Assembly: GCF_003334785.1 (NCBI RefSeq)
Contig: NZ_QOWV01000012.1
Source: Escherichia coli
GTDB taxonomy: Bacteria > Pseudomonadota > Gammaproteobacteria > Enterobacterales > Enterobacteriaceae
Length of the DNA stretch: 64,000 nt
Direction: 5' to 3' (one strand)
The notes under the pieces are model-generated. The model was not told the origin of the DNA. It ran no database searches and saw only the letters and a list, made by a program, of their open reading frames with translations. Each line of letters begins with the position of its first letter. Positions within the stretch are counted from its first letter, which is position 1. This document shows positions 2,598-59,045 of the stretch, in pieces. A program made the position numbers and the translations under genes.

Positions 2598-5705
<3,108 letters not shown>

Positions 5706-15654: not shown

Positions 15655-16968
15655 TCAGGATTTTTTACGCGAGGCTTTTTTACCTCCGCTGGCTGCGCGT
15701 TCAGCTTTGATTTTTTCCAGCAACGCGGCGGCGCTGTTTTCTCCGCTGATTAATTCCGGGTTTTCGGCCCGCCACTGGGCGGTGAGTTCACCACGGAACG
15801 CTTTTGCCAGGATGGATTGCGTCAGGTTGTTAACGCGGGCTAAGGCGTTGTTGACCTGTTTTTCTATGGTGTCTGCGTAGGCGAAGAGCTGCTCGACGCG
15901 GCGAACGATTTCGTGTTGTTCGGGGAGTGGAGGAACAGTTATTGGGTATGCAATTAATTTCTGTGCATTAATATTTGATTGACTGACCCCATCAGATTTT
16001 ACTGAGTAGCAATATTGCCTCCCCAAAATGCTATTTAAATGGTAGTTAAGATAGTCAGGGTTTAAATCAGGTAAACATTGAACCCTAATCAAATAACCTG
16101 CATAAATAGCTGGTTGCTCTGATTTATATATGGCTGTTTTCCCGACAAGTTCAGGACTATTTGTACGATTGAATAATACATCATTGTACTCAAGTTTATA
16201 CTTTTCAATTTCTATGGTATCTGAAGTATAGACTAGATCCGTCCAGTCCAATTTTCCGCCCTGAAGATTGCCCATTCTTAATACAGGAATGAGTCCTTCT
16301 TTATTAGACTTAGATGACGTTCCATAACTTGGTTTTTTTATAAATTCCCCAAGTTTGCCTTCTATCCACCCAGACAGGCTCGAATTATCTCTCCAGTCTT
16401 CAGTTAGTTTTCCACTTACCGCGGCACCCAGCACCGCCTGACGAAAACGTTTCAGGATTTGTGGGATTTGCTCAAGACGTGCTTTGGTGCTCTCTACCTG
16501 CGCCAGCAGCGTATCGAGTTTTTCAGCGATGATTTTTTGTTCTGAAATTGGAGGAAGTTGTATTTCCCAAGCCTCCATTCCAGCTTTGGTAATATGTGGC
16601 ATTGCCACGCCGTGAGCCGATGCTTTAAGTGCCTCTGTAATATTCAATAATGCATAATAAGCAAATTGCTTATTAAGTGCAGGGGATGTTTCAATCTTCC
16701 AAATATGGTAGTGATAAATTAGTTTATGATCCCACTTCGACCAATATGGACCAAATGTTGCTGACCAAGCATATAGGAGATCATTTTTATAGCAATATTT
16801 ATCTTCCTGTAGCTCTAAGTTGGAATAAAACCATTTATTCCCTCCATTCAAATTTTGAATTCTGAGAATAGGAACACCTTCTGTGAGCATTTCTTCTTTC
16901 TTATATGCTCTGCCATTGATGAGGGTCAAAACATCACCCAACTGGCATATTTGCCAATTTTTACTCAT
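15655..16968 (-). CDS. hsdS: Type I restriction-modification specificity subunit HsdS (type IA / EcoKI family frame, non-EcoKI target-recognition domains)
   Basis: 437-aa ORF; central (LPPISEQKIIAEKLDTLLAQVESTKARLEQIPQILKRFRQAVL) and C-terminal (EQHEIVRRVEQLFAYADTIEKQVNNALARVNNLTQSILAKAFRGELTAQWRAENP) conserved regions match the EcoKI family; the two variable domains differ; ATGA overlap with hsdM. Confidence 0.9.
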   Translation of the reverse strand: MSKNWQICQLGDVLTLINGRAYKKEEMLTEGVPILRIQNLNGGNKWFYSNLELQEDKYCYKNDLLYAWSATFGPYWSKWDHKLIYHYHIWKIETSPALNKQFAYYALLNITEALKASAHGVAMPHITKAGMEAWEIQLPPISEQKIIAEKLDTLLAQVESTKARLEQIPQILKRFRQAVLGAAVSGKLTEDWRDNSSLSGWIEGKLGEFIKKPSYGTSSKSNKEGLIPVLRMGNLQGGKLDWTDLVYTSDTIEIEKYKLEYNDVLFNRTNSPELVGKTAIYKSEQPAIYAGYLIRVQCLPDLNPDYLNYHLNSILGRQYCYSVKSDGVSQSNINAQKLIAYPITVPPLPEQHEIVRRVEQLFAYADTIEKQVNNALARVNNLTQSILAKAFRGELTAQWRAENPELISGENSAAALLEKIKAERAASGGKKASRKKS

Positions 16969-34884: not shown

Positions 34885-36351
34885 TCAGACTCCCCATTTC
34901 GGAATTGGATGGTCGCCCATGGAAATGCAGACGTTCTTCATTTCCGCGAACACTTCGAAGCTGTACTCACCGCCTTCACGCCCGGTGCCGGAGGCTTTTA
35001 CGCCGCCAAATGGCTGGCGCAGGTCACGCACGTTCTGGGTGTTGACGAACACCATGCCAGCTTCAATGCCACGCGCCAGGCGTAACACTTTGCTGACATC
35101 CTGTGTCCAGATGTACGACGCGAGGCCGTACTCCACGTCGTTTGCCAGACGTAAGCCTTCGGCTTCGTCTTTAAACGGCAGCAGGCAGGCGACCGGCCCG
35201 AAAATCTCTTCCTGGGCAACGCGCATACGGTTATCTACGTCCGCCAGCACCGTTGGGCGCAGGAAGTTGCCGCCTTTCAGGTGTGCAGGCAGGTCAGACG
35301 GTTTATCCGGGCCGCCCGCCAGCAGGGTTGCGCCTTCTTCAATGCCGAGACGGATATAGCCGGAGACTTTATCCCAGTGTTGCTGGCTGATAAGCGCCCC
35401 AACCTGGGTATTCGGATCGTTCGGATCGCCCACGCGCAGACGGTTGGCGCGTTCGGCAAAGCGTTTAACGAATTCCGGGTAGATGCTTTGCTGAATAAAG
35501 ATGCGCGAACCGGCGGTGCAGCGCTCGCCGTTGATCGAGAAGATGGTGAACAGGGCGGCGTCCAGCGCGCGTTCAATATCGGCATCTTCAAAAATCAGCA
35601 CCGGCGATTTACCGCCCAGTTCCATGGAGTATTTTTTCAGCCCGGCGTTTTTCATGATGTTGCGCCCGGTGGCCGTACCGCCGGTGAACGACACGGCACG
35701 TACGTCATGATGACGAACCAGCGCATCGCCTGCGGTTGCGCCGTAGCCCTGTACCACGTTCAGCACGCCTGCCGGAATACCGGCTTCCAGCGCCAGCTCA
35801 CCCAGGCGGTCAGCGGTCAGCGGGGAGAGTTCCGACATTTTCAGTACCGCGGTATTGCCCAGCGCCAGACACGGCGCGACCTTCCATGTGGCGGTCATAA
35901 ACGGTACGTTCCACGGCGATACCAGCGCACAAACGCCCACCGGCTGCACCAGCGTGTAGTTGAGCATCTTGTCGTCAACCGGATAGGTCTTGCCGTTCAT
36001 CTGCTGGCAGACTTCCGCGAAAAATTCAAAGTTGTGGGAAGCGCGTGGGATCAACACATTTTTGGTCTGATGGATCGGCAGGCCGGTGTCCGCGGTTTCC
36101 ATCGCGGCGATCTCTGGCACGTTCTGGTCGATCAGATCGCCCAGACGGCGCATCAGGCGCGCACGCTCTTTCATCGGCAGATTGGCCCATTTCGGGAACG
36201 CCTCTTTCGCTGCCGCTACCGCCTGATTGATCTCCGCTTCACCGCCAGAGGCCACATCCGCCAGCACTTCACCCGTTGCCGGATTGGTGGTCTGAAAGTA
36301 GTCGTTACCTGCAACATTTTTGCCGTTGATCCAATGATTTACTTTTTTCAT
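34885..36351 (-). CDS. hpaE: 5-carboxymethyl-2-hydroxymuconate semialdehyde dehydrogenase
   Basis: 488-aa NAD-dependent aldehyde dehydrogenase, MKKVNHWINGKNVAGNDYFQTTNPATGEVLADVASGG. Confidence 0.9.
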   Translation of the reverse strand: MKKVNHWINGKNVAGNDYFQTTNPATGEVLADVASGGEAEINQAVAAAKEAFPKWANLPMKERARLMRRLGDLIDQNVPEIAAMETADTGLPIHQTKNVLIPRASHNFEFFAEVCQQMNGKTYPVDDKMLNYTLVQPVGVCALVSPWNVPFMTATWKVAPCLALGNTAVLKMSELSPLTADRLGELALEAGIPAGVLNVVQGYGATAGDALVRHHDVRAVSFTGGTATGRNIMKNAGLKKYSMELGGKSPVLIFEDADIERALDAALFTIFSINGERCTAGSRIFIQQSIYPEFVKRFAERANRLRVGDPNDPNTQVGALISQQHWDKVSGYIRLGIEEGATLLAGGPDKPSDLPAHLKGGNFLRPTVLADVDNRMRVAQEEIFGPVACLLPFKDEAEGLRLANDVEYGLASYIWTQDVSKVLRLARGIEAGMVFVNTQNVRDLRQPFGGVKASGTGREGGEYSFEVFAEMKNVCISMGDHPIPKWGV

Positions 36352-37637
36352 TTCGCTGTTTCCTCACTCACAATTCGGTTCACCAGGCAGCCCACGCCTT
36401 CTACTTCCACCACTACTTCATCGCCAGGCACCACGTCAGATAAGCCTTTTGGTGTGCCGGTGGCGATCATGTCGCCCGGATTCAGGGTCATAAATTCGCT
36501 TAAGTAGGCGATCAGGAAGGGCACGCTGAAGATCAGATCGGCGGTGGTGCCTTGCTGGCGTAACTCGCCGTTGACGAAGGTGCGAAGGGTCAGATTATGC
36601 GGGTCCGGGATCGCCTCTTTCGGCACGATGGTTGAAAGCATCGGCGTCAGTCCGTCGCGGCTTTTTACCCGCAGGTTAGGGCGGTAGTAGTTTTCCAGAT
36701 AGTCGCGAATGGCGTAGTCGTTACACACGGTGTAGCCCGCGACATAATCCATGGCATCGGCTTCGCTGACGTTACGCGCCTGTTTGCCAATAACTACCAC
36801 CAGCTCCGCTTCATAGTGCATGTATTCAATATTGTTTGGACGCACGGAGGTCTGGTTATCGCCAGTGAGGGTATTTGGCGCTTTCAGGAACACCAGCGGT
36901 TCTTCCGGTGGCTTAAATTCCAGTTCGCTGGCGTGGTCGGCGTAGTTCAGGCCGAGGGCAAACAGCGTGCCGTGCGGGTGTGGCTGCGTTGGGAAGCTCT
37001 TGCGCGTGGTCACTTCACGTTCGTCCACTACCGGATTTTCCAGCGGCGGGAAACCTTCTGCGAGAACACGAACGCGATCGCCTGGCTGTATTTCCACGCG
37101 CGCCTGTGGCGTGCCGAGCAGAATGGCATCGCCTGGATTCAGTGTGGCAAATTCGCTCAGGGCGCTCAGCAACTGCGCGGCGTTACGTTGTAAATCGGCG
37201 GTATTCCAGTGATCGGCAGGACGCCCGTTGATCTCGGTATAGATGGTCAGATTATCGACATTGCTGAGAGCCACGGTTTCGCCAATGGGGCAGAATCCAT
37301 CACGACATTTTGCTTTGATTGCCGGGCGGTAAAAGCTCTCTTCCGGCAGGCTGACGTCGTTAGCCAGCGCATATCCGGCGATGTACTCTGCCGCATCTTC
37401 TTCACGTACTTTCGTCGCCGTTTTTCCCACAATCAGCGCAACAGTCGCACCGCTCAGTACCTTTTCACCCTGTGGAAAGGGAATCGGTTCACCGCAACCA
37501 ATCACCGTATTGCGCGGTTTAATAAACCAGACCGCAGTTTTAGGCGGGGCTTTGTAGGGGGATTGCTGGAACGCTTCCTGCCATGCATCAAGTTGGCTGC
37601 GATGGTTCAACGCTACGGCGAAGATAGTGCCTTTCAT
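36348..37637 (-). CDS. hpaG: Bifunctional 2-hydroxyhepta-2,4-diene-1,7-dioate isomerase / 5-carboxymethyl-2-oxo-hex-3-ene-1,7-dioate decarboxylase
   Basis: ORF 36348-37643; ATG at 37637 (GAGGAG Shine-Dalgarno upstream) gives 429 aa; duplicated FAH-family domains. Confidence 0.85.
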   Translation of the reverse strand: MKGTIFAVALNHRSQLDAWQEAFQQSPYKAPPKTAVWFIKPRNTVIGCGEPIPFPQGEKVLSGATVALIVGKTATKVREEDAAEYIAGYALANDVSLPEESFYRPAIKAKCRDGFCPIGETVALSNVDNLTIYTEINGRPADHWNTADLQRNAAQLLSALSEFATLNPGDAILLGTPQARVEIQPGDRVRVLAEGFPPLENPVVDEREVTTRKSFPTQPHPHGTLFALGLNYADHASELEFKPPEEPLVFLKAPNTLTGDNQTSVRPNNIEYMHYEAELVVVIGKQARNVSEADAMDYVAGYTVCNDYAIRDYLENYYRPNLRVKSRDGLTPMLSTIVPKEAIPDPHNLTLRTFVNGELRQQGTTADLIFSVPFLIAYLSEFMTLNPGDMIATGTPKGLSDVVPGDEVVVEVEGVGCLVNRIVSEETAK

Positions 37638-37662
37638 TACCACTCCTCGGATTCGATCATCT

Positions 37663-37686
37663 TAATCATTAATATGTTAATGATTA
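37663..37686. promoter_or_regulatory. Perfect 10-bp inverted repeat (TAATCATTAA-tatg-TTAATGATTA), candidate HpaR operator in the hpaG promoter
   Basis: Palindrome seen directly, 26-49 nt upstream of the hpaG start in the hpaG-hpaR divergent region; HpaR is known to repress this promoter through palindromic operators. Confidence 0.4.
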
Positions 37687-37908
37687 CTTTTATTCCCGAT
37701 TGCGTAGTTTGGCAAAAGTAAGTGATGTAAATGTGATCTAATTAACAAACTATTTACATTTAAAGATAATAAAATATTAAATATCATTAAGTTAATAAAA
37801 TATCATCAATTTTGATAAAATCAGGAATTGCAGGGACAGCGCAGTCCCGGTAACGTGACGATTAACTGTTTCTATATTAATAATTTTGAATTTTTCAGGG
37901 GAAAGATA

Positions 37909-38355
37909 ATGCACGACTCTCTAACCATTGCGTTGCTCCAGGCGCGAGAAGCGGCGATGAGTTATTTTCGCCCAATCGTTAAACGGCATAATTTGACTGA
38001 GCAACAGTGGCGCATCGTGCGTATTCTGGCGGAAAGCCCATCAATGGATTTTCACGATCTGGCGTATCGTGCCTGCATTTTGCGCCCAAGCCTGACCGGG
38101 ATCCTTACGCGGATGGAACGCGACGGTTTAGTGTTGCGATTAAAGCCGATCAATGATCAGCGGAAGCTCTATATCTCGCTGACCAAAGAGGGGCAGGCGC
38201 TGTATAACCGCGCTCAGACACAGATTGAAGAAGCCTATCGGCAGATTGAAGCTCAGTTTACTGCCGAGAAAATGCAACTGTTAACCCATCTGTTAGAGGA
38301 ATTTATTGCTCTGGGCAATTCCCGACAAGAAGACATCCCGGGCGATAATGAATAA
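37909..38355 (+). CDS. hpaR: MarR-family repressor of the hpa meta-cleavage operon
   Basis: ORF 37828-38355; ATG at 37909 gives 148 aa starting MHDSLTIALLQAREAAMSYFRPIVKRHNLTEQQWRIVRILAESPSMDFHDLA (MarR winged helix). Confidence 0.85.
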   Translation: MHDSLTIALLQAREAAMSYFRPIVKRHNLTEQQWRIVRILAESPSMDFHDLAYRACILRPSLTGILTRMERDGLVLRLKPINDQRKLYISLTKEGQALYNRAQTQIEEAYRQIEAQFTAEKMQLLTHLLEEFIALGNSRQEDIPGDNE

Positions 38356-40144: not shown

Positions 40145-40177
40145 TAAAAATGCCCGATAAGCAAAATGTTATCGGGC
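40145..40177. terminator. Hairpin between convergent tsr and yjjL, probable bidirectional terminator
   Basis: gcccgataa-gcaaaatg-ttatcgggc 9-bp stem flanked by A/T runs. Confidence 0.5.
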
Positions 40178-40186
40178 ATAGGGAGT

Positions 40187-43900: not shown

Positions 43901-43977
43901 CTGTTTCTCAATGATGTTTTGTAGGCCGGAGAAGATGTGTAGGTCGCACCTTATGCGACCTACACATCAGTCAGAAA

Positions 43978-49686: not shown

Positions 49687-50306
49687 AACTCGCCCTTTGT
49701 CATAGACGTGCTGCGTATTGTTCAGATAATGAGAATCCATTTGTATCATGAAGCACGGTTGTTTTGCGGTAGGTTAAGATCAAAATTGCGCTGATTAATC
49801 CTGGTTATCGGGACAAGCTCGGTGATAAAAAGCGAATTATCTCTCGCCGCAAACAAACTATCACATGAATATTATCACTATAATGAATTTATTGTTTTAG
49901 CCTTTACGGGTCAGGATAATAGATAGCTGGGCGCGTTTTTTAGTGTTAACAAGTTAAAATCATCAGATTTTATTGAATAAATATTGATTGTGTGATTCCC
50001 GCATTCTGCGGGAAGGGATATCATTTAATTATAAATTAAATGAATGTGATTTCTGTTTTTCATTAAGTATTCCTAACAACTTAATGTAGATATTTTAAAT
50101 GTCTCCAGGCTATTTCACCAGGTTATCATTTGATGCTAACCTTCTGACACATGCAGTGGAGTTGTTGTGCAGCAGGAGTATGCTGATATGAAAGTGAATG
50201 CTAAGGATAATTTATTCGCTTAATCTATTAATTTGCTGGAAACATTTAAGGAATGAATATCCTGAATAAACCATCATAATTTTTAGACAGTGGATGTGGA
50301 GGAAAT

Positions 50307-58924: not shown

Positions 58925-59045
58925 ATTTCAGACCATTAAGAAAATTTTATCCAAAGCCAGTCCAGCGGACTGGCTTTTGCGGTTTTAGCGAATAATAAAT
59001 TGCGTTACTTTGTCATTCTTTCACAACAAAAACAGGAAGGCAGAG

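Follow-up and report, generated by a model that had tools for sequence, protein, structure and literature searches.

The window, by which we mean the whole 64-kb stretch of Escherichia coli DNA analysed here, contains the divergently oriented genes hpaG and hpaR on either side of a 271-bp spacer (37638–37908). hpaG (36348–37637, minus strand) is the first gene of the hpaGEDFHI meta-cleavage operon and matches the equivalog family NF011750 with 977.6 bits, and hpaR (37909–38355, plus strand), which encodes a MarR-family repressor, matches TIGR02337 with 198.7 bits against a cut-off of 121.2; the identities given to both genes in an initial annotation of this DNA are therefore upheld by their own equivalog families. 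Set against annotated E. coli HpaR, the hpaR product shows 99% identity; it carries the Pfam MarR domains PF01047 and PF12802, and its nearest solved structures are NadR (5AIP), 2FBI and the HpaR of Acinetobacter baumannii (7EL2; DNA complex 7EL3). The gene order around the spacer, hpaBA-X-IHFDEG <> hpaR-tsr, is that of the standard hpa cluster, and the hpaG/hpaR region, annotated as hpaG / hpaR, is found at 95–100% identity in 2073 of 5426 complete E. coli genomes. A single genome falls within the 80–90% identity band for this region: E. coli BS-04 (NZ_CP172819.1; L085), which has no hpa cluster and retains between btsT and tsr an unannotated remnant (3001–3398) with 85% identity to window positions 37702–38106, that is, to part of the spacer and the 5′ part of hpaR.

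Gene starts follow RefSeq, which in a 99.9% identical genome of the species places the hpaG ATG at the counterpart of 37637 and the start of hpaR at that of 37909. The initial annotation had begun the spacer at 37644 and given it a length of 265 bp because an in-frame GTG at 37643 was taken as the hpaG start, a minor slip of coordinates only, and one that conflicts with the distance of 26–49 nt between palindrome and hpaG reported alongside it. The spacer had also been called AT-rich, which agrees with a computed A+T content of 72% (G+C 28%, versus 52% for the window). On the hpaG side it includes a Shine-Dalgarno sequence, GAGGAG (37643–37648, minus strand), that is conserved across loci.

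A conserved palindrome upstream of hpaG

The perfect 10-4-10 inverted repeat that had been claimed for this spacer, TAATCATTAA-TATG-TTAATGATTA, is present at 37663–37686 both in the window sequence and in a listing of its inverted repeats, and with the annotated ATG at 37637 it does lie 26–49 nt upstream of hpaG. It has no other match in the 64-kb window when up to three mismatches are allowed, and no match in any of 100 dinucleotide shuffles. Perfect inverted repeats with arms of at least 10 nt and loops of 0–8 nt occupy only six loci in the window. The other perfect repeats with 10-nt arms lie at 16655–16675, 43938–43964, 50021–50043 (TCATTTAATTATAAATTAAATGA, at 50021), 58953–58977 and 40151–40178, the last of these being terminator-like and directly past tsr.

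The conservation of the palindrome was assessed in loci found by a scan with an HpaR alignment, limited to one genome per species, which yielded 80 loci from about 25 genera of Enterobacterales. A divergent hpaG was present in the fetched DNA of 77 of these (spacers of 261–512 bp), and with the window and L001 they make up the 79 spacers compared, ranging from Escherichia to Photorhabdus. The motif TTAA-N4-TTAA, with its centre 34–67 nt upstream of the hpaG ATG, occurs in 78 of the 79; the lone exception, Photorhabdus luminescens, has kept the site, which an insertion separates from hpaG. When 50 non-redundant Enterobacteriaceae spacers were aligned with MAFFT, the best-conserved 18-mer proved to be the core TCATTAA-YATR-TTAATGA (37666–37683), with a majority identity of 0.967 versus 0.671 for the spacer as a whole, and the outer 3+3 bp that complete the 10-4-10 repeat (identity 0.80 and 0.69) are largely specific to E. 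coli. This form of the element is that of the Enterobacteriaceae, and in Xenorhabdus and Photorhabdus it reads TTATTAA-TATA-TTAATAA. Across genera the 4-bp spacer of the palindrome reads YATR, which brings the entire site close to a 24-bp palindrome centred on AT.

Of 2072 E. coli genomes, 1108 match the window exactly over 37648–37702, and the remainder differ at one to three positions. Both 10-nt arms are unchanged in five of six aligned strains and the sixth is altered at the outermost base, 37686, the remaining variation among these strains lying in the 4-bp spacer of the palindrome and in its flanks. That 4-bp spacer (37673–37676) is polymorphic in the species, occurring as TATG, as its reverse complement CATA and as TATA. 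On the protein side, the residues of the HpaR recognition helix and wing are invariant in an alignment of 16 sequences, which was also searched for co-variation with half-site changes; a specificity switch is thus not visible, as helix and wing stay the same despite the C/G to T/A changes in the half-sites of Xenorhabdus and Photorhabdus.

Predicted promoters and a second operator

Directly upstream of the palindrome, on the minus strand, we predict the hpaG promoter, Pg, with a -10 element TAAAAG at 37687–37692 (conservation 0.90, as TAAAAG/TAAAAC) and a -35 element TTGCCA at 37710–37715 (conservation 0.92, as TTGCNA). The arrangement TTGCCA-17-TAAAAG keeps its spacing across genera, and the last base of the -10 element, 37687, adjoins the palindrome. 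A generic sigma-70 consensus scan of the spacer did not call this promoter because its -10 element has no terminal T, and the one minus-strand match that the scan did return (37795–37766) was rejected as not conserved. Further upstream, at 37732–37747, is a CRP-like site, TGTGA-N6-TAACA (TGTGATCTAATTAACA), which agrees with the core at nine of ten positions and is centred 65 bp from the centre of the operator. The 49 Enterobacteriaceae-type loci, and almost every other locus, have a site with eight to nine of ten matches 64–67 bp from the operator centre, and this conserved distance would imply class I activation of Pg by CRP.

The Pg start can be placed in two ways. Should the CRP-like site be a class I site at -61.5, transcription would begin at the A at 37678; counted 6–7 nt past the -10 element, it would begin at 37680–37681. 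With either, the predicted start would fall inside the palindrome, whose centre at 37674.5 would then stand at about +4 to +7. That the palindrome would cover the start follows from its position directly after the promoter hexamers and 65 bp from the CRP-like site.

An HpaR matrix (symmetrised, 20 bp, built from orthologous sites) gives the palindrome 26.1 bits and predicts a second operator, weaker and asymmetric, at 37865–37884. Its score of 5.1 bits in this strain, with a shuffle fraction of 0.035, is second in the spacer and third in the 64-kb window. It has one good arm, TTAATAATT, on the side of hpaR and one degenerate arm farther from it. On the hpaG strand the sequence is ATTATTAA-TATA-GAAACAGT, and the site's centre (37874.5) is exactly 200 bp from that of the palindrome and 34 nt before the hpaR ATG. 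The reading of the palindrome as an HpaR operator in the initial annotation is supported, and it was incomplete in having missed both this second site and the loop model that goes with it.

The distance between the two sites is more constant than that from either flank. Whatever the length of the spacer, 193–205 bp separate the second-best matrix site from the best one in 71 of the 79 loci, and among the 49 Enterobacteriaceae-type loci the inter-site distance is 189–201 bp with a mean of 198.9 and a standard deviation of 1.9, as against standard deviations of 5.0 for operator to hpaG and 8.3 for operator to hpaR, so that insertions and deletions are tolerated outside the operator pair and not between its members. 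A single helical phase is not supported across lineages, the distances being 180 bp in Yersinia, 189 and 193–201 bp, and 205 bp in Photorhabdus. Insertions have enlarged the spacers of three Photorhabdus loci (L076, L078, L081) to 502–512 bp, on the hpaR side in L076 and L078 and between operator and hpaG in L081, where the operator centre is 179 nt from the ATG; all three retain the 205-bp operator pair. In the Xenorhabdus loci L053–L074 an extra imperfect site, TTAACATATTGAAGAT, stands in tandem about 33 bp upstream of the primary operator. The distal site of Xenorhabdus, at 193–196 bp, is weak (3–5 bits).

For the promoter of hpaR, Pr, the consensus scan offers TTAATA-18-TAAAAT with a TG extension (37792–37821, plus strand; TGATAAAAT at 37813–37821), which we treat as a candidate since its conservation is only moderate (0.64). 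The half-site-like ATCATTAAGTTAAT at 37783–37796 was rejected as an operator: it has the wrong spacing (TTAA-N1-TTAA), scores below 0 bits and differs in strain W as well as in further strains.

The good arm of the second operator varies within the species. Position 37882 is A in the window and G in E. coli W, BL21(DE3), FORC 064 and three other sampled strains, so that the arm reads TTAATAATT here and TTAATGATT with G; the A costs the site part of its matrix score (5.1 bits, as against 6.4 with G) and makes AATGAT into AATAAT, which is more like a -10 element. An exact match to the 55 bp of the window over 37861–37915 is found in 48 of 2072 E. coli genomes, and the allele is a minority one.

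Elsewhere in the window, the second-best match to the HpaR matrix (12.4 bits) is a near-palindrome with a TTAA-N4-TTAA core, TTTTTGTTGTTAACAAGTTAATAACAAAAA, at 2547–2576 in the yjiK–yjiJ intergenic region, 24–43 nt upstream of the yjiJ ATG (2530). Of 5426 E. coli genomes, 5391 have this region, among them genomes without hpa, and the near-palindrome probably serves another regulator that acts on the MFS transporter gene yjiJ.

HpaR and competing explanations for the palindrome

The HpaR operators of E. coli W (Galán, Kolb, Sanz, García, Prieto 2003, Nucleic Acids Res 31:6598) belong to the same species, the same genes and the same gene order. Positions 37630–37769 of the window (140 bp) are identical to E. 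coli W (NC_017635.1), and the identical stretch takes in the Shine-Dalgarno sequence, the palindrome, the putative -10 and -35 elements and the CRP-like site; the window departs from W in the central part of the spacer, and also at 37859 (C in the window, T in W) and 37882 (A for G, in the good arm of the second operator). With the palindrome itself unchanged, the likeness to the published operators is drawn from this sequence identity and from secondary summaries. As one such passage relates it, HpaR binds between hpaR and hpaG and represses its own gene along with the hpaG operon; one of its sites is at about +47 of the hpaR promoter, and a loop between two sites is proposed to bring about repression (Galán et al., 2003, as summarized in PMC6888825, which names the strain ‘K-12’, a strain without the hpa pathway). 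The paired layout is likewise found here, and the predicted Pr start near 37828 would put the second operator at about +47, in agreement with the published figure (PMC6888825).

An experimental anchor is available in an orthologue. The HpaR of Yersinia pseudotuberculosis represses the hpa operon and footprints on two 15-bp sites with TTAA-N4-TTAA, centred at -8 and -189 of the hpaG1 promoter and described as ‘similar to E. coli W’ (PMC7180172). Our matrix predicts in Y. pestis the pair TTAA-TATG-TTAA and TTAA-TAGC-TTAA, 180 bp apart, whose positions match those footprints, and the proximal member overlaps a TTGACC-17-GTTAAT promoter. Yersinia thus resembles E. coli in its orthologous repressor (66% identity, Y. 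pestis), in the TTAA-N4-TTAA motif, in having two sites and in the repression of the meta operon. It differs in that its proximal site, centred at -8, overlaps the -10 element whereas the E. coli palindrome would cover the predicted start, in that its sites are 180–181 bp apart versus 200 here, in its operon hpaG1G2EDFHIXBC, which has no HpaA, and in that its HpaR has a further role as an activator of T6SS4, through an imperfect site richer in G+C. The initial proposal that the palindrome is an HpaR operator accordingly draws support from the conservation of the core, from the Yersinia footprints on the same motif and from the identity with strain W.

The closest solved relative of HpaR is NadR of Neisseria meningitidis (5AIP, 5AIQ; E = 8e-45), which is alike in protein and in regulation, as it responds to 4-hydroxyphenylacetate and has several operators flanking the nadA promoter (PMC2791445), although it regulates an adhesin gene and HpaR a catabolic operon. 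The A. baumannii HpaR (7EL2; DNA complex 7EL3) is a homologue of the same name and pathway, more distant in sequence (E = 1e-31), that binds as a dimer to a pseudo-palindrome through its winged helix-turn-helix (Permsirivisarn et al., 2022, FEBS J); its operator lies upstream of hpaA and the meta operon, and the likeness is drawn from the protein and from this description. For MarR-family operators, which accommodate a winged-helix dimer, a palindrome or pseudo-palindrome of about 16–24 bp that overlaps promoter elements of the regulated or the divergent gene is expected, and the element found here is a perfect 24-bp palindrome with an 18-bp conserved core.

Could another protein, such as FIS, IHF, FabR or CRP, own the palindrome while HpaR binds elsewhere? 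The A+T-rich spacer resembles the sites of nucleoid proteins, a 2008 paper announces in its title, as cited, that FIS controls the meta-hpa operon, and the hpaR/hpaG intergenic region was enriched in FabR ChIP-chip and ChIP-qPCR in Salmonella. The same Salmonella study, however, found the expression of hpaR and hpaG unchanged on deletion of fabR, and the proposed FabR core ACAnnTGTnnnnT is absent from the palindrome; the CRP-like site, for its part, is a separate conserved block at 37732–37747. Against all such candidates, the motif adjoins hpaR in every genus examined, and its paired occurrences fall exactly on the sites that HpaR footprints in Yersinia; we consider ownership by another protein very unlikely.

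Still less credible, in our estimate, is that the repeat works at the RNA level, through a hairpin in the leader of hpaG that governs stability or translation, and not as a DNA operator. Folding does predict the 10-bp stem in RNA, and the arms change symmetrically in Xenorhabdus and Photorhabdus (TCATTAA/TTAATGA to TTATTAA/TTAATAA) so that pairing is preserved, but symmetric changes are equally expected of a site bound by a dimer. The hairpin is moreover weak (centroid -6.8 kcal/mol, z = -0.76), with 40 of 200 shuffles folding as well or better, and an Rfam search gave no match; the same half-site stands 200 bp away on the hpaR side, where such a hairpin is impossible; and the full stem would not be transcribed, because the predicted Pg start lies inside the repeat. 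As for a functionless chance palindrome in low-complexity DNA, A+T-richness does favour inverted repeats, and a perfect one with arms of at least 10 nt and a loop of 0–8 nt arose in 1.2% of 20,000 random 271-bp sequences (first-order Markov, with the spacer's composition), but a core that keeps its place in about 25 genera, amid neighbouring sequence that diverges, leaves chance with virtually no credibility.

Proposed mode of repression at Pg and its implications

The palindrome is very probably the primary HpaR operator at Pg, and its equation with the published operator draws on the secondary literature, on the identity with strain W and on the abstract of the E. coli W study, which reportedly describes two sites, OPR1 and OPR2, bound cooperatively. 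We take the palindrome to be OPR1, the perfect palindrome at the Pg start, and the second operator to be OPR2; a text search of the literature for OPR1/OPR2 returned nothing relevant. It is almost certainly the HpaR operator already described in E. coli W in 2003, and there is nothing new at the palindrome itself.

In the mechanism we propose, an HpaR dimer would bind the palindrome as the high-affinity operator at the Pg promoter of hpaGEDFHI. As the palindrome begins one base past the -10 element and spans the predicted start, bound HpaR would block either the binding of RNA polymerase or promoter clearance. HpaR would repress its own gene from the second operator, some 47 nt into the hpaR leader, and the two operators together probably anchor a repression loop that encloses the divergent promoters and the CRP-like site. 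Loop formation is unusual for MarR-family dimers, and the loop, which combines a proposal from the literature with the conserved spacing found here, is best regarded as probable. Release of HpaR by the aromatics of the pathway, 4-hydroxyphenylacetate and 3,4-dihydroxyphenylacetate, is known from the literature. Going further, it is conceivable, if doubtful, that the spacing of ~199 ± 2 bp is under purifying selection across Enterobacteriaceae, that looping by HpaR is ancestral and required, and that the A at 37882 weakens the loop anchor, improves a -10-like hexamer and so shifts the autoregulation of hpaR.

As a discovery the locus carries little weight, since the E. coli W work of 2003 had already presented the HpaR repressor, its operators in the spacer and the loop model. 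What the comparison adds are by-products: an 18-bp operator consensus from about 25 genera, an operator spacing of about 200 bp, and a CRP-like site at a class I distance. For users of Pg and HpaR as an aromatic-acid biosensor these offer a testable promoter map, and the variants of the palindrome's 4-bp spacer together with the G/A difference in the second operator provide a natural allele series for studying looping by the MarR family.
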